This document shows, in pieces, positions 16,941 through 52,199 of a DNA stretch of 64,000 nucleotides (the first letter of the stretch is position 1; each line of letters opens with the position of its first letter). Below the pieces are notes generated by a model. It made no database searches. It was given only the letters and a program-made list of their open reading frames with translations, and was not told the DNA's origin. Source of the stretch: a phage; assembly GCA_036253495.1 (NCBI GenBank), contig GCA_036253495.1_4125.1; one strand, given 5' to 3'. Position numbers and translations under genes: made by a program.

Positions 16941-17255
16941 TTAACCTACACTGCGTGTACCATTAAGGTATGATTGAATGCGTTGACTTGACGGTACTCT
17001 AATAGTTATTCCAGTTTGAAAGTTGTAAATCGGGTCTTCACCCAATAAATCAGGATTAAGTAAGGCGAATACATAATATAAACGCTCATTACCATACATT
17101 TCATACGCTAAACGCCACGGTTGGTGGTTGTACTTTGCAGGTATTTCATAAAAATCATCAGTATCTGCTGGAATTATGTCACGAGGTAAGGTATAATCCA
17201 AATACCACGTCTGTTTAACTTTTGCATAAGGTGAATATTGACTATAGTTTGACAT
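16941..17255 (-). CDS. small baseplate protein with LysM-like motif
   Basis: 104 aa; YEIPAKY...YGNERLYYVFALLNPDL...GITIRVP resembles a LysM fold signature; located in baseplate operon. Confidence 0.35.
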   Translation of the reverse strand: MSNYSQYSPYAKVKQTWYLDYTLPRDIIPADTDDFYEIPAKYNHQPWRLAYEMYGNERLYYVFALLNPDLLGEDPIYNFQTGITIRVPSSQRIQSYLNGTRSVG

Positions 17256-17986
17256 TAAATGAATCCTCCATTGCGAAGCATATCACCACGCTTAAATGCG
17301 TTAAGATTAAACTTCTTAGTCATAAATTCTGATGTTGGTTGCTCTTCTAATTGAATAGTTACCGATATCTTTTGTGGAACCCACACTTCATCTTGTGGAT
17401 TCATGTACCCAGAACTTCTTAATTGTTCAAAAAATTGTCTACTATCCATATCGGACAAATTAAAAGTACTGTTACTACTATCCAATGGTACTTGAATATA
17501 AGAAACATCATTTGGATAGGTAAAATTATATGATTTCATTACTACAGGAATATCATTATATGTATAACGACCATACCCACTTAGTAATAGGATTGGTGGT
17601 GGTGCACCAGGAACAGCTAAATCGGGGTTATTAGCTGATGCAGCTTTTCTACCAAAATCCATCAATGATACAGAGCGAATAAAATGCATACATGCTAAAG
17701 TGTATAGAGCTTCAGCAGCAGTATTTGCATAAAATTCACCTTGTATCGTGAAAATAGTATTACTTGTATTTTTATAGTTGTTATAGTTACTATTTGAATG
17801 CACAGGAGACTGTGTTTCATACTGAATACTTCTTTGTTCAGTGATTGTTGGCGTTACGGTCCATACCAAACCATTGGTTGGACGCAAAAACGATAGTAGT
17901 GTTGGGTTGGCTCCGTCACCAAAATCCCCATACACATAGTTAGCACCAGCGGCTTTAGGTCTTAGTCGGATTCGACGATCAATCAT
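17255..17986 (-). CDS. baseplate/tail structural protein, unknown
   Basis: Track ORF 17255..18013; start moved to the second ATG (17986), which has GGAG 9 nt upstream, because the first ATG sits only 6 nt from the TATAAATA motif. Confidence 0.4.
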   Translation of the reverse strand: MIDRRIRLRPKAAGANYVYGDFGDGANPTLLSFLRPTNGLVWTVTPTITEQRSIQYETQSPVHSNSNYNNYKNTSNTIFTIQGEFYANTAAEALYTLACMHFIRSVSLMDFGRKAASANNPDLAVPGAPPPILLLSGYGRYTYNDIPVVMKSYNFTYPNDVSYIQVPLDSSNSTFNLSDMDSRQFFEQLRSSGYMNPQDEVWVPQKISVTIQLEEQPTSEFMTKKFNLNAFKRGDMLRNGGFI

Positions 17987-18019
17987 TTGTGTTACTCCAT
18001 TACAAGGAAACATTTGAAG

Positions 18020-29576: not shown

Positions 29577-30419
29577 ATGGCTAATTTAAAACTACTACAA
29601 GAAGCAATCGAAGCTTTTGCTAACGGCGAGCAAGATGTAGCTGATAAAAAAATGCGTAAGTACTTTGTTGAACAAGCACAAGAAATTAACAAAGAACTAG
29701 AAGAAAGCATGGACGACGAAGAATGCTGCGATGAAGACGACAAAGAAGAGAAACTAGAAGAAGACTTCGACGTTTCCCCAGATGCTGGTCTTAATAGTCA
29801 AATCGAATATTCTCTTGGTGAAGAAGACAAGAGTGCTGAAGATGATATCGAATTCCAAGCTGGTGAAGAAGATTCTGAAGGTGAAGTTGGTGCAGAAGGT
29901 GAAGAAGTCCCTTCCGAAGACCAATGGGCTTCCATTCAAGATGCTTTCCGTGGCCTACAACAAATGTTTGATGAAATCTCCGGCGAAGGTGAAGTTGACC
30001 TAGACGCTGAAGAACCAGTAGGTGGCGAAGAAGAAGTTGATCTAGAAGTTGGTTCCGAAGACGGCGGTGATGATTTCGCTGATGTTCAATTCGGTGATGA
30101 AAAAGTTGGTGAGTCTTTCAAACTAAAAGCAGTTGCTGATGTTGATAAGAAAGAAAAAGCTGGTGCAAATACTAAATCCCCAGTTGCTTCCCAAGCTAAA
30201 TCTCCAGTACAAGGCGTAGCTCCAGTAAAAATCGCTAAAAACTCAACTCCAGTAGTTGATGACAAATTTGATGGCGTAGATACTGAATCTCACACCGTAC
30301 CAGAAGATATGAATAATGTTATGGATAGCGGCAAAGGCGTAATGAAAGACGTTAAGAAAGTAACCACTGGTTCTTCTAAGTCTCGTTCCCCACTACCAAA
30401 ATCACAACCAAAATTCTAA
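29577..30419 (+). CDS. highly acidic prohead core/internal protein, tentative
   Basis: Start at ATG with GGAGGA RBS; Glu/Asp-rich; codon usage like other highly expressed late genes. Confidence 0.45.
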   Translation: MANLKLLQEAIEAFANGEQDVADKKMRKYFVEQAQEINKELEESMDDEECCDEDDKEEKLEEDFDVSPDAGLNSQIEYSLGEEDKSAEDDIEFQAGEEDSEGEVGAEGEEVPSEDQWASIQDAFRGLQQMFDEISGEGEVDLDAEEPVGGEEEVDLEVGSEDGGDDFADVQFGDEKVGESFKLKAVADVDKKEKAGANTKSPVASQAKSPVQGVAPVKIAKNSTPVVDDKFDGVDTESHTVPEDMNNVMDSGKGVMKDVKKVTTGSSKSRSPLPKSQPKF

Positions 30420-30449
30420 TAATAAATAAAACAAAGAAAGGAGATCATT

Positions 30450-31070
30450 ATGAGTATGATTCGTGAATGGTCTTCATTCAATGATTCACAAATTGTTATG
30501 GAACATCGTGATAATGGGCTGGGAGGTCGCGATTGCTATCTTCGTGGTATCGCAATTCAAGCTGACCAGCGTAATTTGAACGAAAGAATTTACCCTTTAG
30601 CCGAAATTGCTAAAGCTGTTAATAATATGGCTCAACGTTTGGCTAAAGGCGAAAGCATTCTAGTAGAATGTGACCACCCTGAAACTTTGACTATTAACCT
30701 TGACCGTGTAGCAGCAATGATTACTAAAGTCTGGATGGAAGGTTCTAATGGGATGGCAGAAATCAAATTACTTGATACTGCACATGGTCAAAATATTCGT
30801 AAAATGCTCGAAGCAGGTGTAAAACTTGGTGTAAGTTCTCGTGGTTCCGGTAACGTTGATTATAATGGAATAGTTTCTGATTTCGAAATTATCACAATTG
30901 ATATTGTTGCTCAACCTAGTGCTCCCGAAGCGTACCCAACAGCGGTATTTGAGTCTTTGATGAGTAAGTACGGCTCACCTTGCAATGGACCTAAAAAAAT
31001 CACAGAATCTAAATCAGTAAATAAACTAGATTCTGAAATTTATGATTTTTTCAAGAAATTAAAAGGTTAA
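30450..31070 (+). CDS. 21: prohead core protease (T4 gp21-like)
   Basis: 206 aa; position between portal and scaffold; LDTAHG and GVSSRGSG motifs typical of prohead protease family. Confidence 0.65.
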   Translation: MSMIREWSSFNDSQIVMEHRDNGLGGRDCYLRGIAIQADQRNLNERIYPLAEIAKAVNNMAQRLAKGESILVECDHPETLTINLDRVAAMITKVWMEGSNGMAEIKLLDTAHGQNIRKMLEAGVKLGVSSRGSGNVDYNGIVSDFEIITIDIVAQPSAPEAYPTAVFESLMSKYGSPCNGPKKITESKSVNKLDSEIYDFFKKLKG

Positions 31071-31138
31071 CATTTTAAAATTATAAATATTTGTATATTT
31101 GAAGTACAGATATTTCAGTACTTAAAGGAGAGAACAGA

Positions 31139-32257
31139 ATGTCTAAATTAGAAAAGCTTCTAAAAGAATCATCTCTTTCTGATGAAGCAAAACAGCTAAT
31201 TCAGGAAGCATGGAATGAAGAAAAGAACACACTAGCCGCTGAAATGCGTGAAGAAATGAAAGGCCGTTATAAACAAGACCTAGCTGAACTAACAGAAGGT
31301 CTTAACACTATGGTTACTCAAGTTATCGCTGAAGAAATGGGTGCAGTATATGACGAGAAAAAACGTCTCGTTGAAGACCGCGTTACCCTCCGTAAAACTC
31401 TTGGTAACTTCTCTGAATTCGCTAATTCAGTACTAGCTGAAGAAGTTAAACAAATGCGTAACGAACGTAAACTAGTTCAAGAAAGCCTCGGTAAATTCGT
31501 TAATTTCTCTAACGGTATCCTAGCTGAAGAACTAAAAGAATTCCACAGCGAAAAACGTCAACTAGTAGAAGCTCGTGTAAAACTACTTGCTGAAGGTTCT
31601 CGTCAAATTGCAGAAGCACGTAATAACTTTATCAAACGTACCTCTGAAAGTGCTGCTAAATATATTGCAGAAACCACTCAGAAAAATCTTTACGCTTTGA
31701 AACAAGATCTTGCTGAAGCTAAACAAAATATGTTCGGTCGTAAAATCTTTGAAGCATTTGCTCAAGAATTTAATACCAAACAATTTAATGAGAATTCACT
31801 ACTTCGTTCTTTGACTGAATCAATCAAATCTAAAGAAGATGAGATTGCTCAAGTTAAACAAGAACTAAATGAATCTGTTAACGCAGTTAAAGAAGTTCAA
31901 TCAAAACTACGTATCATGGAAGATACACAGGCACGCAATGCAATTATGTCTGAATTGGTTAAGCCTTTGACTAGTCAACAAAAACAAATTATGGAATCCC
32001 TTCTAGCTGCTTCTCCAACAGAAAAGCTTAAAGAAGATTTCAGCAAGTACCATAAGTCTGTACTTAACGGTACTAAAGTAAATGAATCTGCTACCACTCG
32101 TCAAGCAGTTCAACCTTCAGCGAAGAAAACAACCCTAGCAGAAGGTAAAGTAATCACTGGCAACCGTCAGGCTATTGTTGAAAGCGAAGAAATGACCGCT
32201 GACGATATGGCATTCCTAAAAGAACTCGACGTTCTTTCTGGTATCAATAAAAAATAA
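31139..32257 (+). CDS. 22: prohead scaffold protein (T4 gp22-like), coiled-coil with internal repeats
   Basis: Charged, helical sequence with a repeating unit of about 37 aa (LAEE.K...R.LVE...LG.F..F.N); TATAAATA late promoter at 31082-31089; position before capsid gene. Confidence 0.6.
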   Translation: MSKLEKLLKESSLSDEAKQLIQEAWNEEKNTLAAEMREEMKGRYKQDLAELTEGLNTMVTQVIAEEMGAVYDEKKRLVEDRVTLRKTLGNFSEFANSVLAEEVKQMRNERKLVQESLGKFVNFSNGILAEELKEFHSEKRQLVEARVKLLAEGSRQIAEARNNFIKRTSESAAKYIAETTQKNLYALKQDLAEAKQNMFGRKIFEAFAQEFNTKQFNENSLLRSLTESIKSKEDEIAQVKQELNESVNAVKEVQSKLRIMEDTQARNAIMSELVKPLTSQQKQIMESLLAASPTEKLKEDFSKYHKSVLNGTKVNESATTRQAVQPSAKKTTLAEGKVITGNRQAIVESEEMTADDMAFLKELDVLSGINKK

Positions 32258-32349
32258 ACATTTTAAAGCATTTTAATAATCAATTTTTTCAGTACCATAA
32301 ATAATAACATACTGAAAAACGAATATAACATCTTTAAGGAGATAATATA

Positions 32350-33525
32350 ATGTCACAACTACTAAATGAATCCAAATGGGTAGCAGTTAAAGAGAAACTA
32401 GTTGAAGGTCTTCAAGGTACTCGTAAATCCGTAATGGAAACCGTTCTTGATAACCATCGTAAAGTTATGCTACAAGAATCTGCAACCGCTGGTGCAACTT
32501 CTGCTGGTAACATCGCTACTCTAAACAAAGTGATTCTACCAATTATGCGTCGTGTAATGCCAACCGTTATCGCTAACGAAATCATCGGTGTTCAACCAAT
32601 GACTGGCCCAGTTGGTCAAATCCACACTCTACGTGTTCAATACGCTGACAACGCACCAGGTGTTGTAGCTGGCGAAGAAATGCTATCTCCATTCAAGATT
32701 GCTAAATCTTACACTGGTGAGCTAAACTCTGACAACAGCAACCCACAAGCTGCTCCTACTAGCCAACTAGAAGGTACTATGGGTCGTCGCGTTAACATCC
32801 GTATCCTACGTGAAACTGTTGAAGCGAAATCTCGTCGTCTATCTGCACGCTGGACTGTTGAATCTGCACAAGATGCACAATCTCAACATGGTATCGACGT
32901 TGAAGCTGAACTAATGGCTGCTATTGCACAAGAAGTTACCGTTGAAATCGACCAAGAACTACTAAGCCGTCTACGTGCACTACCTGGTGCTGCTGCTGTA
33001 ACTTATGACCAATCTAAAGTTACTGGCGTTGCAACCTTCGTAGGTGATGAGCACGCTGCTCTAGCTACCCTAATCAACCGTCAAGCGAACGAAGTTGCTC
33101 GTCGTACCAAACGTGGTGCTGCGAACTGGGCTGTTGTTTCCCCAACCGCTCTAACTATTCTACAATCTGCAACTACTTCTAGCTTTGCACGTACTACTGA
33201 AGGTACTTTTGAAGCACCAACTAACGTTAAATTCGTTGGTACTCTAAACAGCACCATGCGTATCTTCGTTGATACCTATGCTTCAGATGTTGAAGATATC
33301 CTAATCGGTTACAAAGGTAATGCAGAAACTGACGCTGGTGTTTTCTACTGCCCATACATCCCATTGATGGCATCTGGTACTGTTATGGACCCTAACACTG
33401 GAGAACTCGTTACAACCTTCTTGACACGCTATGGCTACGTCCAGCTAACAGATTCTACTAGTTCACTAGGTAATGCAGCAGATTATTATTCTAAAATTGC
33501 TATCAAAAACGTTACTTTCATGTAA
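32350..33525 (+). CDS. 23: major capsid protein (gp23-like, compact 391-aa form)
   Basis: IANEIIGVQPMTGPVGQIHTLR, IEAKSRRLSA and YKGNAETDAGVFYCPYIPL align with T4 gp23 IAFDICGVQPMNSPTGQVFALR, IEAKSRQLKA, YKGPNEMDAGIYYAPYVAL. Confidence 0.9.
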   Translation: MSQLLNESKWVAVKEKLVEGLQGTRKSVMETVLDNHRKVMLQESATAGATSAGNIATLNKVILPIMRRVMPTVIANEIIGVQPMTGPVGQIHTLRVQYADNAPGVVAGEEMLSPFKIAKSYTGELNSDNSNPQAAPTSQLEGTMGRRVNIRILRETVEAKSRRLSARWTVESAQDAQSQHGIDVEAELMAAIAQEVTVEIDQELLSRLRALPGAAAVTYDQSKVTGVATFVGDEHAALATLINRQANEVARRTKRGAANWAVVSPTALTILQSATTSSFARTTEGTFEAPTNVKFVGTLNSTMRIFVDTYASDVEDILIGYKGNAETDAGVFYCPYIPLMASGTVMDPNTGELVTTFLTRYGYVQLTDSTSSLGNAADYYSKIAIKNVTFM

Positions 33526-33580
33526 TTTACAAAAAAGTAGAAAAAAGCAAAAACACAGAATTAAATTCTTTTCAAAAAAA

Positions 33581-33612
33581 GGGACTCTTCGGAGTCCCTT
33601 TTCTTTTTTTTC
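33581..33612 (+). terminator. rho-independent terminator after capsid gene
   Basis: GGGACTC-TTCG-GAGTCCC hairpin followed by a T-rich run; A-run upstream. Confidence 0.7.
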
Positions 33613-33621
33613 AAAAAAGTG

Positions 33622-33650
33622 TTGACATAGATCCTAGAAATAGATATAAT
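33622..33650 (+). promoter_or_regulatory. consensus sigma70 promoter (TTGACA-17 nt-TATAAT)
   Basis: Exact -35 and -10 hexamers with 17-nt spacer, about 35 nt upstream of ATG 33686. Confidence 0.7.
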
Positions 33651-33685
33651 ACGCGTATAGTAATTAATGTATAGGATATGAAGAA

Positions 33686-34825
33686 ATGAACAAAGAGCGG
33701 TTTGTTGAAAGTATGAATGAAAAGTATTCGTCATTGGGAATTAACGGTGACTTTGATTTCTCAAATTTAGTTTTTAAGACAAGTAAGATGACCGTAAAAT
33801 GTAACCACTGTGGTAAAGAAAACACAAAAAGTGCATTACGCCATTTGGAATGTACCTGCAAATGTTATTCAAATCTTTCACAGAAAATATCAAAAGACGA
33901 ATTTATTGATAGAATGAATGAAAAATTTGGTGTTGGTGTTTATAAATTTGATAAACTTTTCTTTTTGAATGTTAGGGATGTTATTGAAGTATACTGTTCC
34001 AAACACGAAGGATACTTTAAAACAACCCCATACAATATGAGTCGTAGTGTGAATGGGTGTAACATTTGCATTCCAAATAAAAAAATGAATCATGATGAAT
34101 TTGTTTATAGATGTAACGCGTTATATCCGTATTTGGATTTTAACCGAGTTGATGAAAATGGTGATAAAATAACAAAATTTGTAGGAACAACAAAGTATAT
34201 AAAAGTATGGTGTAATAGACATAATGGAATTTGGGATGTTTATGCAAATACTTTGTTGAAAGGTAAAAATCATTGTGGTATATGTACCGGACGCAAACTT
34301 AGAACCAAAGAACAATTTGTAGAATTAGCATCTAAGATTCATGATAACAAATATGATTATTCAGAAGTTGAATATAAAAATAGTGAACATAAGGTGAAAA
34401 TTATTTGTACAGAATGTAATGAATCATTTTCACAACAGCCAAAAGCTCACTTATCTGGTAGAGGGTGTCCGGTATGTGGGAAGTATGGATATCAACAAAA
34501 TAAGCCAGGTTATTTTTATATACAAAAATTAACTCCAAAAAATATAAATGAAGTAGCAATTTATAAAATTGGAATTACTGGAGATTTATTCAGAAGAATG
34601 TATGAACAATCTCTACATTCAGAATATTTTCATGAGTTTATCAGAACTGAATTCTTTAGTGATGGTATAAAACCACTGGAGTTAGAAACACTTATAAAAA
34701 AAACTATTACATGTGGAATAATAACAGAAAATGAATTACAAGATGGATTTAGTGAAACGATTTCATCAAATGATGTTTATGAAGTTCACAAAATCGTAAA
34801 TAAATTTATAGAGAGTGAAAAATGA
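33686..34825 (+). CDS. GIY-YIG-like (T5orf172-type) protein with three N-terminal zinc-ribbon-like repeats; probable freestanding homing-endonuclease-like gene
   Basis: Three modules of about 75 aa ending in C..H...G.GC..C; C-terminal GYFYIQKL...IYKIGITGDLFRR fits the GIY-YIG/T5orf172 pattern. Confidence 0.5.
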   Translation: MNKERFVESMNEKYSSLGINGDFDFSNLVFKTSKMTVKCNHCGKENTKSALRHLECTCKCYSNLSQKISKDEFIDRMNEKFGVGVYKFDKLFFLNVRDVIEVYCSKHEGYFKTTPYNMSRSVNGCNICIPNKKMNHDEFVYRCNALYPYLDFNRVDENGDKITKFVGTTKYIKVWCNRHNGIWDVYANTLLKGKNHCGICTGRKLRTKEQFVELASKIHDNKYDYSEVEYKNSEHKVKIICTECNESFSQQPKAHLSGRGCPVCGKYGYQQNKPGYFYIQKLTPKNINEVAIYKIGITGDLFRRMYEQSLHSEYFHEFIRTEFFSDGIKPLELETLIKKTITCGIITENELQDGFSETISSNDVYEVHKIVNKFIESEK

Positions 34826-35319
34826 AATATAAAAATTTACAAAAAATGAAATATTATGCTGTTCTTCATGGCGAAGAAGGGGATGACTGGGCTTTTTATA
34901 ATTATGATAAATTAGTTGAAGGATATGCTTATAATTTTGATGATGATTATTATCAATTAAGAATTCAATATGATGAATATATAATATTTTCTGACAATTT
35001 CTGCACTAACTCAACTTCCATTGGTATTGGATCTATCAAAAATGAACTTACAAATCAAATAGTAAAGTGTAGAAATAAATCAAATGAAGTTATTGTGTAT
35101 ACGGAAGGTGCAAACTATTCATCTGGTATGAAACTGATCGGACGACCTAATTTCGATAGTACTGACGAACTATTTCAAATATCAACAGTATGTAATATTG
35201 ATTGGGATAAAGTCAAAGAAGCATTTCGTATATTGGATGAATTGAATGAGATAATCAATTTTAAATATTATCTAACTAAACCATCTGAATCTCTAGAATT
35301 AACTAATTTACCGAAATAA
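34822..35319 (+). CDS. hypothetical protein
   Basis: 165-aa ORF, start overlaps preceding stop. Confidence 0.4.
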   Translation: MKYKNLQKMKYYAVLHGEEGDDWAFYNYDKLVEGYAYNFDDDYYQLRIQYDEYIIFSDNFCTNSTSIGIGSIKNELTNQIVKCRNKSNEVIVYTEGANYSSGMKLIGRPNFDSTDELFQISTVCNIDWDKVKEAFRILDELNEIINFKYYLTKPSESLELTNLPK

Positions 35320-35339
35320 CAATAAGGAGGTTAACACGG

Positions 35340-35690
35340 ATGTTAACTGTATACATTTTTAAAAAAGAAGAGTACTTAAAGAGTCAGTACTCAAAAATTG
35401 AGATCAATGTTCCTTATGGAACGTTGGTGGGTTATGATGAGGCTACGGAGACGTTGTATTACAATGATGATCGTCTGGATTACAGTACTGATCATTTTAT
35501 AGAAGATATATTGAGTACTGATTCAGAAGACATGTTGTATGAAGAATATATTGACAAATACAAAGAACGCATGTCGAAGTTACATGCTGATGCTCCAGTA
35601 CTGAACACTCCTAAAACCCCATCCGAGTTTGATCCTCAAAATCCATTTCAACGCCTGATAGATGCGGGTGTAAACTTCAGAATTAGTTAA
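35340..35690 (+). CDS. hypothetical acidic protein
   Basis: 116-aa ORF with GGAGG RBS. Confidence 0.45.
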   Translation: MLTVYIFKKEEYLKSQYSKIEINVPYGTLVGYDEATETLYYNDDRLDYSTDHFIEDILSTDSEDMLYEEYIDKYKERMSKLHADAPVLNTPKTPSEFDPQNPFQRLIDAGVNFRIS

Positions 35691-35720
35691 TAATAAATAT
35701 CTCCATACTAGGAGATATCT

Positions 35721-36029
35721 ATGTCACAAATATGTTATGTAATCACTAATAGTGCATGGCCTGAATATGTAAAGATAGGCTTCACTACAAAATCAGAGAT
35801 GAAAGAGCGTTTAGGTGTTTACCAGACTGCTTCACCATTCAGGGATTTTGAGGTATACCATCAGGTTATGTTTGACGATGCACGAACAGCAGAAAAGGAA
35901 GTGCATAAGAGATTAAAGCAAATGAATGCAACAAGGCAACCTAACTCTGAATGGTTCAAGATGCCTAAAAAGTTAGCTGCAAATATTATTGATTCCGTAT
36001 TGGATGATATGGAAAATGATTTACTATAG
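35721..36029 (+). CDS. small T5orf172/GIY-YIG-like domain protein
   Basis: 102 aa; CYVITN...YVKIGFTT...R...E..VH..L...SEWF pattern. Confidence 0.5.
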   Translation: MSQICYVITNSAWPEYVKIGFTTKSEMKERLGVYQTASPFRDFEVYHQVMFDDARTAEKEVHKRLKQMNATRQPNSEWFKMPKKLAANIIDSVLDDMENDLL

Positions 36030-36069
36030 ATATAAATATGATATATATTAAACAAAAAAGGATTTTTAC

Positions 36070-37680
36070 ATGAGCATAAGTTTTAATCATCCACAGAATA
36101 CTGTAACCAGTACTGCGGAAAATGGTTCATTGAATCTAATAGTACTAGGTGGTACACCAACTAATCCTCGACCAATTAGAATGAATTCTTCATCGGTAAT
36201 ACTACCTGTTCAGGATTTGCCTGTTGGTGAAGCAGGGGCGATAGTATTTGACAAAAACACTCTTACTTTGAAGTATCATGATGGTACTAACTGGATTGAA
36301 ATGTTAAGTGCTGCCGATGTAGTTGCACCAATTGAACAACAGATTCAGGATATCAATTCTATACTTGGAACTAAGGTTGATAGAGTAACCTATTCAATGT
36401 CATCAATTCCAACTGCTTCTATTAGCGGAACTACATTGAATATTATATTCCCAACACCTTCATCAATTCAAGGTGCTAATGGTTTGTACACGAGTGCTAA
36501 ACCTGGATGTATTATGCATTATAGCTTGACATCTGGACAAACCGTTGCTAGTATACGTGAACAAATGTCGGGTAGTACTGGTGGACAGAGTGGTCGTGAC
36601 GGCTCCCAAGCTAAACCGTGGAAAACATCCGATGGTTGGTGTTTTGCTGATGGTATGTGGTGGCAGTGGCAAGGTGCTAATGGTACAATAACCAAACAAG
36701 TACCAAACTTGAACCGTGATGGATATTTAAGAAGTATCACCACTAGTGGTATAACCAAAACTGACGCAATGATAGCAGGTGGTGGTTCATTAACACCGAG
36801 TACTTTCACTATTCCAGACCACATTCATGGGACTGGTAAAATGTTAGGTACTAACGGTAGTGATGCGGATGATGCTGTTTTCATTAGTGGTAGAGCATGG
36901 AATGATGGCAGAGGCTATCGTGGTCCTGCAATCTTTGGTGATAAGAATGCCCGTATGGAGTTTAGTGTAGATGGTAACAATGCAGCAACTGCATTATCAA
37001 CTTCACAACCAATTTATGATGATGCGAATGCACGCACAATAACCCATAACCATACAGTAACAGGTATTGACGTACCACACTTTAACACTGCAATTTTGTA
37101 TAACATTTCCGAACCATCAGTTGCGATGAGCGAAAATACTGCAAATGGTCGTTTTGTTCGTAAAACTGGTGATACAATGTCTGGTGAATTATACATTGCT
37201 AACCGTGCTGGTATTCGTGGTGGTGGTGATTTGTACTTATTCTTCCAGAACGCTAGTGGTGGTGAACGTGCCGCAGTATACTTCCAAGGTAATGAACTAA
37301 GACTTCGTGCTGGTGGTGGTGCTGTAACAGTTAACAGTGGTGGTTCTTTGTATATACCAGGTTCATTAACAGTTAACGCAGCATCAGCAACTGTCGGAAC
37401 GAAACATATAGTACGTTCTGTTAACGGCTCAACTGCTGGTTCTGATGGTAATGTAAATATATCTGTCGGATCAGTACAAGATGTACGTTTTTTCAATCAA
37501 GATTATTATTGGCCGGGTGGTAATGAGTTATCATGGCACTTTGTGTGTCCATCAGGTGCAGTACTAAGTGGTATAAATGTACAAGATGTTGGTAAAAACT
37601 CTGCTGATAACATTGGTGGTGTGAATTATAAATTTATACAAATTTTGGTTGATGGTAGCTGGAGAAATATAAACGGATAA
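36070..37680 (+). CDS. tail-fiber-like protein (putative receptor-binding protein)
   Basis: 536 aa, Gly-rich; RKTGDTMSGELYI motif of the kind seen in phage tail fibres; TATAAATA at 36031-36038 upstream. Confidence 0.55.
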   Translation: MSISFNHPQNTVTSTAENGSLNLIVLGGTPTNPRPIRMNSSSVILPVQDLPVGEAGAIVFDKNTLTLKYHDGTNWIEMLSAADVVAPIEQQIQDINSILGTKVDRVTYSMSSIPTASISGTTLNIIFPTPSSIQGANGLYTSAKPGCIMHYSLTSGQTVASIREQMSGSTGGQSGRDGSQAKPWKTSDGWCFADGMWWQWQGANGTITKQVPNLNRDGYLRSITTSGITKTDAMIAGGGSLTPSTFTIPDHIHGTGKMLGTNGSDADDAVFISGRAWNDGRGYRGPAIFGDKNARMEFSVDGNNAATALSTSQPIYDDANARTITHNHTVTGIDVPHFNTAILYNISEPSVAMSENTANGRFVRKTGDTMSGELYIANRAGIRGGGDLYLFFQNASGGERAAVYFQGNELRLRAGGGAVTVNSGGSLYIPGSLTVNAASATVGTKHIVRSVNGSTAGSDGNVNISVGSVQDVRFFNQDYYWPGGNELSWHFVCPSGAVLSGINVQDVGKNSADNIGGVNYKFIQILVDGSWRNING

Positions 37681-37683
37681 TTT

Positions 37684-38139
37684 ATGATAACTTTAAAAAA
37701 TTTTAAATCATATGAAGGTAATGACCCTAAATTAAAAAAATTAAATGTTGCTTTTTTAATTTCAGAATGTGGAATGGATTGGTATGATTCTCAAAAATTA
37801 TTTTCCGAAAATACAATGAAAATTGTGGTTGATAAAAATAATATAGTTTGCAATGCAACACGTGATATTACTATGATGTATCCAGTGGATGCTAGTGTAT
37901 ATGAAATTGAATATGATGGTGATGGACATGAACTAAGAGGAAAAATATATCATGAAGAAGATGGCACTTTTTCTGAAAGACCACCTCGTAAACCTACCCC
38001 ACAACAAATATTCAATGATTTGAGTGAACGTAAAAAAGTACTGGACATGAAGAAAGAATTCGATATGTTGAGCACTGAAGAAGCTGCTGAGTACGAGAAG
38101 CTAATCTCTGATCTTAAAGAAGTTTTAAACCTTCTTTAA
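37684..38139 (+). CDS. hypothetical protein, possible tail-fiber assembly/chaperone partner
   Basis: 151-aa ORF starting 4 nt after the fibre gene stop. Confidence 0.3.
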   Translation: MITLKNFKSYEGNDPKLKKLNVAFLISECGMDWYDSQKLFSENTMKIVVDKNNIVCNATRDITMMYPVDASVYEIEYDGDGHELRGKIYHEEDGTFSERPPRKPTPQQIFNDLSERKKVLDMKKEFDMLSTEEAAEYEKLISDLKEVLNLL

Positions 38140-38237
38140 AAATTTGGGACACATTGAGAAGTACTGATATAATAGAGACATTCCACGAGGAACATTGTGG
38201 AGTGTCTATTTTTTCATTAACACATGGAGATACAACA

Positions 38238-38540
38238 ATGGCTAAGTCTAAAAAAGAAGCAAAAGTAGAAATTCGTGACCTAAACGACGAACAACGTAAA
38301 CGTCTAAGTGATGGTCTAAACAATGCAGTGGTACAGCTAACCTTTATTGATGATACCAAAGCTTCCTATACTGATTTCATCAACTCTCTTTCTGATGAGC
38401 TAGGTATTGATGCATCCGATATCAAACAAGCTGCACAACGCATTTACAAAGGCGATTACTTTGATAAGCAAAACAAACTAGACAACATCGAAACTATCCT
38501 AAGCGTAACTAATAATCTACCACAAGCTGATGATTATTAA
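38238..38540 (+). CDS. hypothetical small protein
   Basis: Start moved from track 38154 to ATG with GGAGA RBS, because the TGATATAAT promoter at 38165-38173 lies inside the longer ORF. Confidence 0.45.
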   Translation: MAKSKKEAKVEIRDLNDEQRKRLSDGLNNAVVQLTFIDDTKASYTDFINSLSDELGIDASDIKQAAQRIYKGDYFDKQNKLDNIETILSVTNNLPQADDY

Positions 38541-38566
38541 TCAGTACTGAATACTTAAAAATTTAT

Positions 38567-38598
38567 GAGCCTCCAATGTTGGGGGCTTTTATTTTAAC
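38567..38598 (+). terminator. rho-independent terminator
   Basis: AGCCTCC-AATGTT-GGGGGCT hairpin followed by TTTTATTTT. Confidence 0.55.
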
Positions 38599-38625
38599 TT
38601 AATACAATGTAAAGGAATACAATAG

Positions 38626-41600
38626 ATGTATATCGATGCTTATATGGAACGTAAACGTACTGGTGATATTCTTCACGTAGTTGAACGTAAAAACGGGAAG
38701 CGTATTCTCCGTGAACTGGAGCCAGTATTTGAGTATTATGTAGAATCACCATTAGGTACACACAAAACTGTATATGGTACAATGGCACAACATCTTGAGT
38801 TTTCTTCACAGGCTCAAATGAATAAAAGCGTAGAGCAGCACAAAAGTGAAGGTCTACGAATTTTTGAAAGTGATTGTAACATTACGTTTAAAACGTTAGC
38901 GAAAGAGTACATGGGTAAGGGTTCTCCTGACCTTAACATTGCATTCTTCGATATCGAAACAGACTTCCATAAGAAGTTTGGGTATGCACCACCATCAGAC
39001 CCGTTCAACCGTGTAACTGCAATTTCTTTGTATCAATCATGGACTGGTAAGGATTATGTTTTAACACTTCCTCCAGTTGACATGGAAATTTACGAAGCAC
39101 AAGACATTGTTCGACGTTTGAACGAAGAGACAAATGATCCTAACAGTACTGTCATCCTTTATACGGATGAAAAAGAAATGTTTATGGAATTCTTTAGTCT
39201 TATTGATGATTCTGATGTATTATCAGGGTGGAATAGTGAGTTCTTTGATATTCCATACATGATTAACCGCACAAAGAAAATCTTCAATGAAGCAACCACT
39301 GCTCGTTGGTGCTTGTGGAATAAGAAACCTAGTGCTCGTGAAGCAGATAACTTTGGTAAAACTGTAGTAACCTATGATTTAGTTGGTCGTGTTCACTTAG
39401 ATTATCTTGCTCTTTATAAGAAACATGCTGGTCAAGTTGAACAATCATATAAACTAGATTACATTGCAGAGAAAGTAACTAAAGAGAATAAAGTATCTTA
39501 TGAAGGTTCTTTGGATAAACTATATCGTGAAGATTACATTACCTTCTTGCGTTATTCTAAGCAGGATAGTATTCTTCTGAAGAAAATTGATGCTGTATGT
39601 GACTTTATCAACCTACACAACCGTCTTGCTCATAAAGAGTGTGTACTAATTAGTACTACAATGGGTTCGGTAGCTCTGATTGATACTGCAATTATTAACC
39701 TTGCACATAGTCGTGGTGAAGTGGTATTCAACAAAGCACCTAAAGATGATTTTGAAGTTGATTATGAAACAGAATCATATGAAGATGAAGATGATGAAGC
39801 AGATGAGAAAATTAGTGCTAAAGCTGCTGGTGCATGGGTACAAGATCCAGTACTAGGTTTGGTGAGTGATTTGGGATGTACTGACTTTAACTCACTGTAT
39901 CCAACTGTACTTCGTACATTAGGTATGAGTACTGAATGCATTCTTGGGCAACTTCGTCAGGATTACACTGATGCGTATCTTGCTGCTAAAATTCAAGAGC
40001 AAAAGGCCAAATCCAAATCGAAATCATTCGAACCAGACTGGACTGCTGCATGGCATGGTTTGTTTGCTGCTGTTGAGTTTACAATGGTTCATGAGAAATC
40101 AGATCAAACAATCATTGTTGATTTGGAAGATGGAAGTTCTTTCCATGCGACTGGCAAAGAGTTGTATGATATAATCTTTGCCGAGGACAGTACTATTGTT
40201 CTAAGTGCTAACGGAACACTATTTGACAAGTCTAAGTATGGTGTAATTCCAGACATTCTAACTCAATGGTATTCTGAACGTAAAGCACAACAAAAGATGG
40301 TAATTGATTACAAACACATGTATAGTGATGGTTGGGAATTTAATGGTCATGAGAAAGTTGAACCACTTCTATCCAACTATATTCCTGGTACAATGTTCCG
40401 CACCAACTTACATGAAAATGATCCTGTTTATCTATTGCGTATTGCAATTGGTAAAGGTCAATGGGAAGATGTAGCTAAACTAATTGTTGAAAATGGTTTA
40501 GAACTAAAAGACGGAAGAATTTTCTGTTCTAAAGAAGATAAAGCATATTTCAAACAACAAAGTGCATTCTGGAAACAGAACCAGCAGATTCGTAAGATTC
40601 TTCTAAACAGTCTATATGGTGCACTATTGAACAAAGGTTCACGTTTCTTTGATAAGCGTTTGGGTCAGTCTGTTACCTTAACTGGTCGTTCTATGACTAA
40701 ACACATGGCGAGTCGTATCAATGAAATTACAACTGGTGTTTACAATCACCAGGGTGGTTCTGTAATTTATGGTGATACTGACTCCGTATACTTCAGTGTA
40801 ACCCATTACTTGAAAGAACAAGGTATTCCGTACAATCTATCTAAAGAAGAAATTGTTGATATGTACATTAAAATTGGTGATGAAGTTGGTGAGTCCTTCC
40901 CATCTTTTATGCATCAGATGTTCAACACTGGAATTGAGAAAGGTAAGATTGTAGGTGCTGACCTTGAGATGGTAGGTTCTCGTGGATTGTTCCTGAAGAA
41001 GAAACGTTATGCAATTCTGAAGTACTGGGAAGATGGATTCCGTAAAGATGTTGATGGTAAACCTGGTGAAATCAAGGCAATGGGTCTTGAGATTAAACGT
41101 TCAGATACGCCAAAATACATCCAGAACTTCCTAGAAGAGACTCTAATCGCTCTACTGGTAGGGGAGTCAGAGGCTGAACTAAAACAGCGTGTACGTGACT
41201 TTAAAGCGGTATTTAAAGACATTCCTGTACACGAGAAAGGTTCTCCGCGTACCGTTAAGAACTACACTAATCTGGAAGCTGAATATAACACTACTGGTAA
41301 GTGTAAAGTTGGACACGTATTGGCAGGTATTCAATGGAACCGTCTACGTGAAGTGTATGATGACAAGTCAGTACCAGAAGTTACTGATGGTACAAAAGTT
41401 ATCGTGTGTAATCTAAAAGATAACCCAATGGGAATTAAAGCTGTAGGATATCCAATTGACTGTGTAGAGTATCTACCTGAATGGTTCTTAGAATTACCGT
41501 TTGATAGTGAGAAAATGGAAGAGATAGTTTTAACTAAGAAATTAGAAAACATCTTTGGTATTCTCGATATGGATATTGGTATTCATGAGAAAAGTACAGC

Positions 41601-41631
41601 AGCAGTTAACAATGGTTTCTTCTCTTGGTAA
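38626..41631 (+). CDS. 43: family B DNA polymerase (T4 gp43-like)
   Basis: 1001 aa; exonuclease motif FFDIETD, polymerase motif C YGDTDSVYF, LYPTVLR region. Confidence 0.9.
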   Translation: MYIDAYMERKRTGDILHVVERKNGKRILRELEPVFEYYVESPLGTHKTVYGTMAQHLEFSSQAQMNKSVEQHKSEGLRIFESDCNITFKTLAKEYMGKGSPDLNIAFFDIETDFHKKFGYAPPSDPFNRVTAISLYQSWTGKDYVLTLPPVDMEIYEAQDIVRRLNEETNDPNSTVILYTDEKEMFMEFFSLIDDSDVLSGWNSEFFDIPYMINRTKKIFNEATTARWCLWNKKPSAREADNFGKTVVTYDLVGRVHLDYLALYKKHAGQVEQSYKLDYIAEKVTKENKVSYEGSLDKLYREDYITFLRYSKQDSILLKKIDAVCDFINLHNRLAHKECVLISTTMGSVALIDTAIINLAHSRGEVVFNKAPKDDFEVDYETESYEDEDDEADEKISAKAAGAWVQDPVLGLVSDLGCTDFNSLYPTVLRTLGMSTECILGQLRQDYTDAYLAAKIQEQKAKSKSKSFEPDWTAAWHGLFAAVEFTMVHEKSDQTIIVDLEDGSSFHATGKELYDIIFAEDSTIVLSANGTLFDKSKYGVIPDILTQWYSERKAQQKMVIDYKHMYSDGWEFNGHEKVEPLLSNYIPGTMFRTNLHENDPVYLLRIAIGKGQWEDVAKLIVENGLELKDGRIFCSKEDKAYFKQQSAFWKQNQQIRKILLNSLYGALLNKGSRFFDKRLGQSVTLTGRSMTKHMASRINEITTGVYNHQGGSVIYGDTDSVYFSVTHYLKEQGIPYNLSKEEIVDMYIKIGDEVGESFPSFMHQMFNTGIEKGKIVGADLEMVGSRGLFLKKKRYAILKYWEDGFRKDVDGKPGEIKAMGLEIKRSDTPKYIQNFLEETLIALLVGESEAELKQRVRDFKAVFKDIPVHEKGSPRTVKNYTNLEAEYNTTGKCKVGHVLAGIQWNRLREVYDDKSVPEVTDGTKVIVCNLKDNPMGIKAVGYPIDCVEYLPEWFLELPFDSEKMEEIVLTKKLENIFGILDMDIGIHEKSTAAVNNGFFSW

Positions 41632-41789
41632 GGATAATATTATGACTAAATTAGTAAATGATGAAGTAGAACTAAGCTACAATGAAGTATATGATGTATA
41701 TTCAAACGCAGAACTTGAAATTACTGAAGATGATTTGAATTCAGCATGGGAAGTATATGTGAAGTGGGCCGCTACTCAAGGGGATAAAC

Positions 41790-42101
41790 ATGAGTAATGT
41801 TTACAAACGTATTGGTGAAGTACTGGAAGATAGCACAATTATCAATTCAGTACTTGCGTATGATAATGATGAAGAAGAAGTACTAAAAGGTGCGGGTTTT
41901 ACCCGTACTGGTTCGGTTGTTATTGATGGTGATATTGTGGATGTATACTCACTAGCCAAAAAACGTAAGGTTGTCGTGATAGATGAGTCTTGGACACAAC
42001 AAGACTTGGATAATTTACACAAAACAAAAACCATCAACCGCATTGGTATGAGTTCAAACATCGATAAACCATATCTAAAAAAATGGAATACAAAATTCTG
42101 A
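41790..42101 (+). CDS. hypothetical protein
   Basis: 103-aa ORF with AAGGGGA RBS. Confidence 0.45.
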   Translation: MSNVYKRIGEVLEDSTIINSVLAYDNDEEEVLKGAGFTRTGSVVIDGDIVDVYSLAKKRKVVVIDESWTQQDLDNLHKTKTINRIGMSSNIDKPYLKKWNTKF

Positions 42102-42109
42102 TAAAATAA

Positions 42110-42139
42110 TTGAGACAAGCACTGTTAACGAGATATAAT
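42110..42139 (+). promoter_or_regulatory. sigma70-type promoter (TTGAGA-18 nt-TATAAT)
   Basis: Hexamers at 42110-42115 and 42134-42139, upstream of ATG 42195. Confidence 0.5.
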
Positions 42140-42194
42140 GGTGCTTGTCATAGACTTGACATTAACGAACAAAACAATAAACGGAGAATATATA

Positions 42195-42926
42195 ATGGAT
42201 CTACGCAATGTACTACGTGACCTAGTTAACACCACTAGCGGTATTGATTTTTCTTGTATCGCAATCAGCAGTGAAGACCGTGGTGAAGGTCAACGCGTTT
42301 ACATGGAAGCATATACCGATGACCGCACTTTGGTTATGCGTGCATACACTAAAGAAGACGTTCCAGAAGTTCAAGGTCGTTTTGGTCTAGGTAACTTGGG
42401 TCTTCTACAAGGTCTAATGTCCCTAAAGACTTACAGTACTGAAGGTACTACTATCACTTCTAATTTGAAAGATGGTGTTGTTAAAAGCCTAGCATTCAAA
42501 TCTGAAGAAGCAAGCACTACCTTTATGGTACAAGCTGAAAAACTAATTCCACCACAACCACGTTTCACTGAACAACCATATGACGTACAGGTTACACCTA
42601 GTGCAGCTAAAGTTCAGGAACTAAAGAGTTTCTCTGGTGTGTTTAAATCTTTCAGTTCACTAGTTACCCCATACACTGAAGGTGACACCCTTTACTTCCA
42701 CGTTGGTGAGAAGAACAAGAGTAACCACGTTGGTGCTCTAGCTTTCTCTAAAACTGAAGGTGAATTAGGTTTGGGCTTTGGTTATAACATTGACCGTGTT
42801 CTTCAAGCATTAGCTCGTGTATCTAATGCAGAATCAGTAACACTTGGTTTAACCAAGACTGGTATGATGAACGTTACATTAGATACTGGTATCGCAGTAT
42901 ACAAAATCTATGTAACTGGTTGTTAA
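42195..42926 (+). CDS. putative sliding clamp (gp45-like) or abundant structural protein; uncertain
   Basis: 244 aa; size and weak pattern resemblance to gp45; highly-expressed-type codon usage. Confidence 0.3.
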   Translation: MDLRNVLRDLVNTTSGIDFSCIAISSEDRGEGQRVYMEAYTDDRTLVMRAYTKEDVPEVQGRFGLGNLGLLQGLMSLKTYSTEGTTITSNLKDGVVKSLAFKSEEASTTFMVQAEKLIPPQPRFTEQPYDVQVTPSAAKVQELKSFSGVFKSFSSLVTPYTEGDTLYFHVGEKNKSNHVGALAFSKTEGELGLGFGYNIDRVLQALARVSNAESVTLGLTKTGMMNVTLDTGIAVYKIYVTGC

Positions 42927-42936
42927 TAAAAGTACA

Positions 42937-42966
42937 GGGGAACTGGAGTTCCCCTTTTGGTTTTAA
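42937..42966 (+). terminator. rho-independent terminator
   Basis: GGGGAAC-TGGA-GTTCCCC hairpin followed by TTTTGGTTTT. Confidence 0.65.
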
Positions 42967-42985
42967 AAGTAAAGGAAGATATAAA

Positions 42986-43192
42986 ATGCCACTATATACA
43001 TATCGTTGTGAAAAAGAAGACTGTAAACACAGTATGGATAAAATTGTAAAAATCGCAAATCGTGAAGAACCACACGATTGTCCTATTTGTAATGGTGAAA
43101 AAACCATGAAATTGGAATTGTTCACTCCAGGTGATAAAGGGGCTAATCTTTATTTCCGTGGTAAATGGTTTGCAAACACTGGAGGTTACTAA
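42986..43192 (+). CDS. FmdB-type zinc-ribbon protein
   Basis: 68 aa; MPLYTYRCEKEDCKH...HDCPICNGEK: two CxxC pairs with the typical N-terminal MP.Y.Y.C signature. Confidence 0.55.
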   Translation: MPLYTYRCEKEDCKHSMDKIVKIANREEPHDCPICNGEKTMKLELFTPGDKGANLYFRGKWFANTGGY

Positions 43193-43194
43193 TA

Positions 43195-43493
43195 TGAAAC
43201 TAAAAATGATTAACGATTATGTTCTTGTTCGTCAGATTGAAGCACAAAACAAAAGTACTGGTGGTATTATCCTCGGTAATGTAGAGCCTCCATGTGTTGG
43301 TATGGTTATTTCTGTTGGTGAAGGTAAAGTACTACCAAATGGTCAAATCGCTGAACATAACATTCGTGAGGGTGATATGGTTGTTTTTGGTCGTTCTTCT
43401 CTGAACACCCCCCTGACTGAAGATCTTGGTGGTGGTGAAGATACATACTATGTAATGAAAATTGAAGAAATCTTTGGAAAGAAAAATGGCTAA
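43195..43493 (+). CDS. GroES-like co-chaperonin (Hsp10; functional analogue of T4 gp31)
   Basis: MKLKMINDYVLVRQIEAQNKSTGGIILG...GMVISVGEGKVLPNGQ...GDMVVFG aligns along its length with GroES ([27 protein letters not shown]...GEVLAVGNGRILENGE...GDIVIF). Confidence 0.7.
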
Positions 43494-44211
43494 GAAAAGG
43501 TTATTACCTTTCTGGATGGTCCCCGCTCATTGGGGACTTTCTGGTAAAGCGAAAGAGATTGCTAAAGCATACTATTACAATGACGATTATGAAGCAGATT
43601 TGAAAGTTGCAGAACTAACATATCTTACTGAATATGAAGTTGATGTTGCACAATTGGACATTAAAAAGAAATATGGTGTTATTGATACACTAAAATATCT
43701 AATTGAACAGGCGGCTGTCGAATTAAAGTACTCTAAGATTACACGTGAAGAGTACGATTTAAAAGTACTTGACGCAAAGTTAAGTACTGATACTATTACT
43801 CAAAAAGAGTATGATATGGAAGTAATCGAGCTAATGCCTGAAGGTGATGATAAACGATTGAAAGCCATTGAGTATGCGTATAAGTATGATGAAATTACAC
43901 AACAAGAGTATTCAAAGGAAATCTATACATTACGTAAAGAGCCTTGGATTGATTTGGATGTAATTTTGAATCCTGATACAAACGAAGTAGAATTTGTATT
44001 TGATTACAATGAATACTTTTGGAAGAAATTAAAAGCCGAAGGTCACCCAGGAACGGATGAAGAAGAGATTATTGATAACTTTGTTCGTGATTTGGGTCGC
44101 AAATTAGCTACTGACGATTATAGTGATAACGAAGATGCAAAGCTAGTGAGTGCGAACGCAGGGTTAGAGAATCTACCTGGTTTACCTGAAGGTTTCAAAT
44201 CATACAAATAA
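43486..44211 (+). CDS. hypothetical protein with internal short repeats
   Basis: About 241 aa; repeated units KITREEYDLKVLDAKLS / TITQKEYDMEVIELMPE / EITQQEYSKEIYTLRKE. Confidence 0.45.
   Translation: MAKKRLLPFWMVPAHWGLSGKAKEIAKAYYYNDDYEADLKVAELTYLTEYEVDVAQLDIKKKYGVIDTLKYLIEQAAVELKYSKITREEYDLKVLDAKLSTDTITQKEYDMEVIELMPEGDDKRLKAIEYAYKYDEITQQEYSKEIYTLRKEPWIDLDVILNPDTNEVEFVFDYNEYFWKKLKAEGHPGTDEEEIIDNFVRDLGRKLATDDYSDNEDAKLVSANAGLENLPGLPEGFKSYK

Positions 44212-47297: not shown

Positions 47298-52199
<4,902 letters not shown>

Follow-up and report, generated by a model that had tools for sequence, protein, structure and literature searches.

A probable short tail fiber and its assembly chaperone form an exchangeable block at a core locus of a RaK2-like jumbo coliphage

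The tail fiber gene considered here lies in a 64,000-nucleotide (nt) stretch of phage DNA (contig GCA_036253495.1_4125.1 of GenBank assembly GCA_036253495.1; the full stretch is referred to as the window), within a feature spanning positions 35721 to 38139, and a closely related described protein is gp098 of Klebsiella phage RaK2 (S2-8 of phiK64-1). gp098 has been found in virions by tandem mass spectrometry and immunogold labeling, and the antibody mostly labeled particles with contracted tails, at the baseplate (PMC10253068). Antiserum against gp098 reduces plating efficiency and the protein is needed for infection, while adsorption was not blocked when cells were preincubated with gp098, and it was proposed to be a secondary receptor-binding protein of the baseplate and no component of the long fibers (PMC10253068). 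In phage CBB, the orthologous CBB_260 was detected in virions with 11 peptides, and six short fibers of approximately 29 nm are located below the baseplate (PMC5259590). Micrographs of phages phAPEC6 and fEgEco12 also revealed six short fibers below the baseplate. A second set of comparable systems consists of S (gp49) and U (TfaMu, PDB 5YVQ) of Mu, H and G of P2, and S and U of P1, in which a fiber is paired with a chaperone encoded downstream. In the model published for Mu and Pam3, the variable N-terminal domain of the tail fiber assembly protein (Tfa) binds the fiber tip and the conserved C-terminal helices mediate trimerization (PMC9608196).

Relative to these systems, the 536-amino-acid (aa) open reading frame (ORF) of the window is probably a short tail fiber attached to the baseplate and accompanied by a 151-aa Tfa chaperone, with the two genes occupying a core locus and being exchanged as a unit. 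The assigned fiber and chaperone features are as follows.

36070..37680, plus strand: 536-aa predicted baseplate-associated tail fiber, ortholog of RaK2 gp098 and CBB_260 (phrog_13229)
36070-37119, plus strand: N-terminal body of the fiber, lineage restricted (aa 1-350)
37045-37053, plus strand: invariant HNH motif of the fiber (aa 326-328)
37159-37197, plus strand: GDTMSG neck motif of the fiber (aa 364-376)
aa ~380-468 of the fiber, plus strand: shaft
37474-37677, plus strand: distal tip of the fiber (aa 469-536)
37684..38139, plus strand: 151-aa predicted Tfa, short variant (phrog_136 "tail fiber assembly protein," expect value [E] 4.9e-25)

The window comes from the genome of a RaK2-like jumbo coliphage and is colinear with Escherichia phage A4 (ON286972), with 99.3% identity over 64 kb by megablast. 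A lower value of 95.8%, returned by blastn to the left of a 379-aa endonuclease gene, was rejected as an alignment-extension artifact. Only two exceptions to colinearity were found, both of which flank the fiber block: positions 33527 to 35339 hold a different allele of the 379-aa endonuclease and an extra orphan 165-aa ORF, and A4 carries a 695-bp insertion, containing A4_16, directly after the chaperone stop codon. The feature itself comprises a 102-aa ORF (35721-36029), the 536-aa ORF (36070-37680) and the 151-aa ORF (37684-38139), all on the plus strand, with the chaperone ATG 3 nt past the fiber stop codon. Upstream lie the major capsid gene (32350-33525) and then the genes for the 379-aa endonuclease, a 165-aa ORF and a 116-aa ORF; the DNA polymerase gene (38626-41631) is located downstream.

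The fiber contains 12.5% Gly, carries RKTGDTMSGELYI at aa 364 to 376, and has HxH motifs at aa 251 to 253 and 326 to 328. It matched the phrog_13229 "tail fiber protein" profile with an E value of 1.3e-215, far beyond chance, with aa 1 to 534 aligning to positions 1 to 541 of 544. It is 56% identical to RaK2 gp098 (over aa 1 to 465, at an equivalent genomic position) and 48% identical to CBB_260. The likeness to gp098 extends to the N-terminal body, the HxH and GDTM(S/T)G motifs, and the position between the capsid and polymerase genes. Across an alignment of 60 fiber sequences, 46 columns were invariant, including H326, H328, G367, D368, and M370. By analogy with these orthologs, for which the virion and baseplate location has been published, the fiber would be a virion protein located at the baseplate and is most likely a secondary receptor protein that binds irreversibly; its receptor would probably be of the lipopolysaccharide core type. 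As the gene pair is already annotated in A4 ("putative tail fiber protein" and "tail assembly chaperone") and its function can be read from the RaK2 and CBB orthologs, this core finding is an ordinary one.

The N-terminal 350 aa are restricted to this lineage, as just 13 of 1.84 billion cluster representatives, searched exhaustively, matched with an E value of <1e-30, and all 13 matches to this body start at residue 1 to 3, i.e., at the protein N terminus. This part is unrelated to the fibers of Mu, P2, and P1, and would anchor the protein to the baseplate. It would be followed by the GDTMSG neck, a short beta-rich shaft and a tip of approximately 70 to 150 aa of the P2 H, Mu S, or P1 S kind. 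Homology was found to a P2-like H (aa 387-534, E 3e-10), a Mu-like S (aa 448-534, E 8e-12), and P1 S (aa 459-531, E 2e-6). The tip shares 60% identity with the short fiber of Avunavirus 18-1-2 and 54% with phAPEC8 gp175; these two fibers and the short tail fiber of phage phiTE (PDB 9CUY, chain c) share with the window both the distal tip and a GDTMTG neck motif, whereas the N-terminal anchoring parts of the Vequintavirinae and phAPEC8-type short fibers are unrelated to that of the window fiber. Among PDB sequences, the match was to 9CUY "Short tail fiber" (E 8e-10), of which residues 3 to 92 only were modeled in the map (PMC11972413); the tip is therefore without a solved structure. When the 60-sequence alignment was used as a profile against PDB sequences, no match was obtained, which leaves the N-terminal body with no relative among solved structures by this approach. 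In a Foldseek comparison of the fiber model, the Mu fiber 5yvq_A was the sole significant PDB match (E 2.3e-5, probability 0.99), with 8ju3 next, and nearly all of the named significant structural matches in BFVD were tail fibers.

A further observation concerns the N-terminal body. In comparison with a 98%-identical database relative (P0001), nine of the 10 differences cluster at aa 160 to 208 (36547-36693), which suggests a small gene-conversion patch within this otherwise conserved part of the sequence.

Several features identify the 151-aa protein as a short variant of Tfa. In addition to the phrog_136 match, aa 4 to 76 matched Mu protein U (5yvq_B) with an E value of 3e-8, and aa 1 to 86 are 45% identical to P1 U. 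Short Tfa proteins of this kind are rare, with five clusters only in 5.8 billion proteins; among these five, aa 1 to 100 are variable and aa 110 to 151 nearly invariant. An AlphaFold2 (AF2) model built on the five-sequence alignment placed helices at aa 106 to 125 and 131 to 150, with predicted local distance difference test (pLDDT) scores of 70 to 85. This modularity fits the published Mu/Pam3 model. If the analogy with Mu holds, the N-terminal domain of the chaperone would bind the fiber tip and the conserved C-terminal helices would join three chains, so that trimer folding would begin at the C terminus. The original prediction, made from the letters of the window, had named these three ORFs and proposed a Gly-rich, tail-fiber-like protein with a candidate chaperone downstream; the coordinates, composition, and both identities were confirmed, and the structural comparison that it called for returned a fiber-type match, with the Mu fiber the best in PDB.

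An extra orphan Tfa-like gene of 165 to 166 aa is present in A4 (10801-11498) and in a metagenomic contig (L021, 3862-4362), positioned exactly past the chaperone stop codon (equivalent to window position 38139/38140). The window is without it, as is the metagenomic contig L019. This gene may be a relic of an earlier fiber/chaperone exchange. The 165-aa ORF of the window was considered as a displaced copy of A4_16, which is also 165 aa and chaperone-like, and was rejected since the two share no similarity.

To map the exchange, the window was compared with contig L019, which is metagenomic in origin (Logan SRR23924993). Sliding nucleotide identity and a mismatch map delimited a sharply divergent block between genomes that otherwise share 97 to 100% identity; its boundaries and surroundings are as follows.

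36153..38018, plus strand: predicted exchanged cassette, from approximately fiber codon 28 to approximately chaperone codon 112
30400-33200: head genes, 97.5 to 100% identity to L019
35330-36130: ORF116 and the T5orf172 gene (the 102-aa ORF), 92 to 99.5% identity
36153-38018: fiber and most of the chaperone, 65 to 87% identity
From 38124: regulator-like gene and DNA polymerase, 93.5 to 99.5% identity

The left breakpoint falls inside the first ~27 conserved codons of the fiber, approximately 100 to 130 nt past the T5orf172 stop codon, and the right breakpoint falls inside the invariant C-terminal helix of the chaperone. Synonymous divergence (dS) reached 0.61 to 0.73 in the fiber, whereas the polymerase showed 0.11 and the regulator-like gene 0.05; as dS is high in the block relative to its flanks, the block has a separate ancestry and has not merely evolved faster. 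The ratio of nonsynonymous to synonymous rates (dN/dS) was 0.06 to 0.13 in the N-terminal body, 0.32 to 0.40 at aa 431 to 536, and 0.21 to 0.39 in the chaperone. Comparisons with more distant phages also set the fiber apart. Relative to 121Q-type phages, the capsid is 97 to 98% and the polymerase 92 to 94% identical, yet fiber aa 233 to 330 are 11 to 16% identical to the 121Q-type Asteriusvirus proteins, 51% identical to RaK2, and 43 to 48% identical to Mimasvirus and Eneladusvirus; thus, the identities of this fiber segment disagree with the relationships of capsid and polymerase. The tip (aa 469-536) showed at most 30% identity to any of the ten genome relatives compared, A4 being left out.

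The C termini at this locus are of different kinds. Among the 120 homologs listed, 22 end in PF21882 (Gp53-like_C), nine end in PF13884 (the intramolecular S74 chaperone), and the rest are of the Tfa-dependent type. The PF21882 fibers of RaK2 and Turkey3 have no chaperone gene. In RaK2, the fiber ends in a repeat-extended shaft and PF21882, whereas the window fiber ends in a tip of the P2 H/Mu S type that is predicted to need a separate Tfa. One fiber body with three chaperone solutions (separate Tfa, intramolecular S74, or none) constitutes a natural experiment on fiber folding.

In Mu and P1, tip variation involves an invertible segment (G in Mu, C in P1). Inverted repeats did not exceed 26 nt at 77% complementarity and were short and at chance level, and no invertase was present among the ORFs listed for positions 30000 to 44000. 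With neither long inverted repeats nor an invertase, an invertible segment of the Mu G/P1 C kind was rejected, and tip variation arises by allelic replacement rather than by a Mu-type switch. The fiber-plus-chaperone block would be replaced as a unit by homologous recombination, and over longer times the tip would be shuffled with those of unrelated coliphages. The practical value is that a block of approximately 1.9 kb exchanged in nature has been mapped precisely, with breakpoints in conserved sequence; the map can serve as a ready-made plan for retargeting jumbo phages of the A4 type, which infect Escherichia coli LF82, an adherent-invasive strain.

The position of the block among relatives was examined in the Asteriusvirus phages 121Q, vB_Ec-M-J, Turkey3, JNE01, ph0011, and phAPEC6, in GAP32 and CBB (Mimasvirus), in fHe-Yen9-04 (Eneladusvirus), in RaK2 (Alcyoneusvirus), and in five metagenomic contigs. 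The same order was kept in every relative examined: capsid, endonuclease (variable), small ORF, T5orf172, fiber, chaperone, regulator-like ORF, and DNA polymerase, with the T5orf172 and chaperone genes missing in RaK2. The fiber locus therefore belongs to the fixed core genome of the group. Colinearity with A4 places the baseplate wedge and hub genes at approximately 7600 to 18000 on the minus strand, about 18 kb upstream, and together with the fiber locus they make up one structural region of roughly 30 kb.

These results divide the claims of the original prediction about the setting of the fiber. An exchangeable host-range module had been proposed, and the sharp divergent block, the dS contrast and the different tips and chaperone strategies of relatives all agree with it; the cross-phage comparison suggested at the time did reveal a swapped block, at 36153 to 38018 against L019. 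The proposed accessory cassette was not upheld, as gene order is conserved across four named genera and the metagenomic contigs. The description of the locus as lying away from the baseplate module is true in a narrow sense only, because the wedge and hub genes are some 18 kb upstream and on the other strand, and both belong to the same structural region. The T5orf172 gene, described as mobile-type, is no recently mobile element, since its identity across genera is like that of the polymerase and its dN/dS is 0.01 to 0.02. Of the homing-endonuclease-like genes beside the fiber, the polymorphic one is the 379-aa endonuclease farther upstream, and T5orf172 is vertically inherited; the divergence tract of the endonuclease ends about 550 nt short of the fiber gene. 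The genes and signals on which these statements rest are listed below.

35721..36029, plus strand: 102-aa stand-alone T5orf172/GIY-YIG-like protein (PF10544, PF13455; phrog_15085, E 7e-56)
35693..35699, plus strand: ATAAATA, late-promoter-like motif before T5orf172, invariant in 10 of 10 aligned lineages in an otherwise variable spacer
35697..35718, plus strand: predicted RNA hairpin ATATCTCC / GGAGATAT, arms 35697-35704 and 35711-35718, minimum free energy -10.9 kcal/mol, z -3.6
33686..34825, plus strand: 379-aa endonuclease with zinc-ribbon repeats and, at its C terminus, a weak match to T5orf172 (phrog_681 "endonuclease," E 2.5e-58)
34822..35319, plus strand: 165-aa orphan ORF, found neither in A4 nor in any other relative examined

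The 102-aa protein matched PF10544 (T5orf172; E 9e-13, 49 bits with a cutoff of 20) and PF13455 (MUG113; E 1.5e-12, 48.4 bits with a cutoff of 22.3). The Pfam domain covers aa 4 to 92 of the 102, and no separate DNA-binding domain was found in the protein. All loci examined in Asteriusvirus, Mimasvirus, and Eneladusvirus carry the gene at this same place, and RaK2 alone is without it. Its product is 81 to 87% identical in Asteriusvirus and 70 to 72% identical in Mimasvirus and Eneladusvirus, comparable to 73 to 76% for the polymerase, and the dN/dS of 0.01 to 0.02 reflects strong purifying selection. The gene also lies outside the exchanged block. On this sequence evidence, T5orf172 looks like a functional, separate, vertically inherited gene.

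Its upstream region resembles the control regions of the T4-type genes I-TevI, segB, Aeh1 mobE, and the late genes e and soc, which have a late promoter and a hairpin hiding the ribosome-binding site (PMC2988022). In T4 I-TevI, segB, mobE, e, and soc, translation is limited to late transcripts whose start lies within the hairpin (PMC2988022). For CBB and GAP32, ATAAATA has been published as the consensus of late promoters (PMC5259590). At T5orf172, the motif overlaps the 5' arm of the hairpin, and the 3' arm holds the GGAG of the Shine-Dalgarno sequence AGGAG (35710-35714), so that the 5' arm would be missing from a late transcript. An equivalent hairpin was predicted in 14 of 14 lineages, and a covariance model recovered it at 16 of 17 loci, RaK2 being the one not matched; the RaK2 locus thus differs from the window in having neither T5orf172 nor the hairpin. 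Pairing was maintained in 84% of alignment cells compared with 34 to 56% in slid controls, with one compensatory change (UA<->CG) and one CG->UG change. Support for the hairpin is moderate and not strong, because covariation is thin, with one compensatory pair only, and the model-based alignment has a one-column register problem for Mimasvirus-type sequences. The hairpin would hide the ribosome-binding site, and translation of T5orf172 would probably be limited to late transcripts.

The 379-aa endonuclease behaves like the truly polymorphic, mobile-element-like gene of the region. It is 47% identical to the A4 allele, and 47% is also its best match among phage records; it is absent from Mimasvirus and Eneladusvirus. 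A predicted sigma-70-type promoter of its own lies past the terminator-like hairpin of the capsid gene. Tracts of third-position divergence were found at the 3' end of the capsid gene (33264-33498) and the 5' end of ORF116 (35408-35522); the tract thus ends at approximately 35522, 550 nt before the fiber gene. For the neighboring 165-aa ORF, no Pfam or PHROG match was obtained, and tblastn against 50,697 phage records found none either; the GC content of its surroundings is low (27.6% in 34001-35000).

The first of the alternative explanations, which we regard as unlikely, is that a mobile accessory cassette carries the fiber and chaperone as cargo; the T5orf172 and 379-aa nucleases would make double-strand breaks in relatives during co-infection, and repair would copy over the fiber module next to them. 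It draws on the polymorphism of the 379-aa endonuclease, which is missing from two genera and shows 47% identity between its alleles against 99.3% between the genomes, and on its flanking tracts of synonymous divergence, which resemble co-conversion. Over 64 kb, the window differs structurally from A4 at two places only, which flank the fiber block, the left breakpoint of the cassette is within ~100 to 130 nt downstream of the T5orf172 stop codon, and the late-promoter-plus-hairpin layout of T5orf172 is typical of T4 homing endonucleases. However, the locus is syntenic in all relatives examined, from four named genera, and T5orf172 diverges across genera (70 to 72%) like the polymerase, under purifying selection. 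Nor was any DNA-binding domain detectable in T5orf172 beyond the 102-aa catalytic-type domain, and the gene lies outside the exchanged block, at 92 to 99.5% identity to L019 versus 65 to 87% for the fiber. The tract of the 379-aa endonuclease stops well before the fiber, and the conserved ends of the fiber and chaperone genes suffice to produce the breakpoints through ordinary homologous recombination, as in the replacement of a fiber-plus-chaperone block at a core locus that we prefer.

A related and quite improbable scenario is that T5orf172 is an entrenched late nuclease that, in mixed infections, cuts the locus of relatives at or near the conserved 5' end of the fiber gene, after which repair copies the fiber-plus-chaperone cassette. 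Such a role would explain why T5orf172 is kept directly upstream of the fiber in at least three genera, why its regulation is of the homing-endonuclease style and why the left breakpoint is ~100 to 130 nt from its stop codon. Were this true, the exchange of host-range modules among RaK2-like jumbo phages would be driven by a domesticated remnant of a homing endonuclease. T5orf172 shares with the T4-type homing endonucleases a GIY-YIG-superfamily domain and is a putative nuclease; it differs from them in its length of only 102 aa, with no recognizable DNA-binding domain, and in being fixed, syntenic in at least three genera and under purifying selection rather than sporadic. A conserved T5orf172 gene with late-promoter-plus-hairpin control beside a receptor-binding gene is a small, testable oddity.

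It is also quite doubtful that a long tail fiber has the 536-aa protein as its distal subunit, acting as the primary, reversible receptor binder. The ortholog in the Yersinia phage fHe-Yen9-04 is annotated "Long tail fiber protein p37," tips of the P2 H, Mu S, and P1 S type belong to the main fibers of P2, Mu, and P1, and the BFVD matches include long fibers of the gp37 type. Against this, gp098 of RaK2 labels the baseplate of contracted particles and does not block adsorption upon preincubation (PMC10253068), and the fiber-like part past the GDTMSG neck is approximately 170 aa only. The nearest relatives of the tip are short fibers of Vequintavirinae-type and phAPEC8-type phages, and micrographs of CBB, phAPEC6, and fEgEco12 show six short fibers below the baseplate.

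That the divergence of fiber and chaperone reflects fast local evolution under host pressure with no horizontal exchange is very unlikely. In its favor, dN/dS is raised in the tip (0.32 to 0.40) and chaperone (0.21 to 0.39) compared with neighboring sequences (0.01 to 0.13); against it, dS too is ~6-fold above the flanks with abrupt boundaries, aa 233 to 330 are nonhomologous between the A4 and 121Q types yet common to other genera, the tips are 54 to 60% identical to those of unrelated phage families, and relatives have PF21882 or PF13884 C termini at the same locus.

Several points weigh against a baseplate-attached short fiber with a Tfa chaperone exchanged as a unit. The virion location and function of the fiber are carried over from orthologs that are 48 to 56% identical and do not come from this phage or A4, and the promoters, terminators, and receptor type are assigned at the level of consensus matches or prior knowledge. 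For the chaperone, the AF2 model of the N-terminal domain has pLDDT scores below 50. No Pfam match was obtained at an E value of 0.1 or better, so that Caudo_TAP (PF02413) was not reached, whereas the 171-aa chaperone ortholog of 121Q does match PF02413 (E 2.7e-9). The protein stops right past the conserved "(S/A)TE(E/D)...Y..L" helix and does not have the C-terminal ...WPxxP tail of its longer relatives; in comparison with Mu it is thus shorter, below the PF02413 threshold and without this tail. Identity in the fiber tip and in the N-terminal part of the chaperone did not covary beyond close relatives; in contig P0006, for example, the tip is 59% identical but the chaperone's N-terminal part 36% only. 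Finally, orthologs of the chaperone were not detected in virions of CBB (PMC5259590) or phAPEC6. Mu U stays on the fiber; as the orthologs went undetected in CBB and phAPEC6 virions, retention of the window chaperone in the virion in the manner of Mu is unlikely. The database record of phAPEC6 (MK817115.1) annotates a 49-aa ORF only at the fiber locus, and an intact 536-aa fiber ORF is present there (2383-3993). Because the 536-aa ORF is unannotated in this record, the virion proteome of phAPEC6 is no negative evidence on the fiber.

Additional regulatory signals were located around the fiber and capsid genes.

36031..36038, plus strand: TATAAATA, T4-type late promoter motif, 32 nt before the fiber start codon
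18020-18027, minus strand: TATAAATA at the baseplate operon
31082-31089, plus strand: TATAAATA at the scaffold gene
36031-36038, plus strand: TATAAATA at the fiber gene (as above)
38176..38207, plus strand: terminator-like hairpin with a 13-bp stem and T-run after the chaperone gene
33577..33602, plus strand: terminator-like hairpin with an 11-bp stem (five GC pairs) and T-run after the major capsid gene, same in A4
33622..33650, plus strand: perfect sigma-70-type promoter TTGACA-17-TATAAT before the 379-aa endonuclease gene, 12 of 12 matches, equivalent site in A4

TATAAATA is rarer than expected in the window (five copies in 64 kb versus 8.9 expected), and three of the five copies, those given above, are 30 to 50 nt upstream of structural genes or operons. 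This is consistent with TATAAATA marking T4-type late promoters used with the gp55-like sigma factor of the phage. The fiber and chaperone would then probably be late genes driven by this motif, and the hairpin at 38176 to 38207 is the probable end of their late transcript. The sigma-70-type site at 33622 to 33650 is a predicted early promoter for the run of genes comprising the endonuclease, ORF165, ORF116, and T5orf172.

Two further conserved genes border the region.

35340..35690, plus strand: 116-aa conserved hypothetical protein, core neighbor (phrog_15724, E 1.4e-52; dN/dS 0.04 to 0.05)
38238..38540, plus strand: 100-aa regulator-like protein, right conserved flank (phrog_12534, E 2.8e-45; phrog_639 "transcriptional regulator," E 8e-8)

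The 116-aa protein shares 74 to 90% identity in Asteriusvirus and 50% in RaK2. The 100-aa protein is 100% identical to A4_17, 87 to 93% identical in Asteriusvirus, and 78% identical in RaK2.

Farther downstream, the large terminase subunit is encoded by two ORFs, at 47298 to 48002 (234 aa) and 48278 to 49615 (445 aa), with approximately 275 nt between them. An Rfam scan of the whole window returned no family above threshold, including no intron family at the split terminase. The subunit is likewise annotated as two genes in A4 (A4_29 and A4_30).

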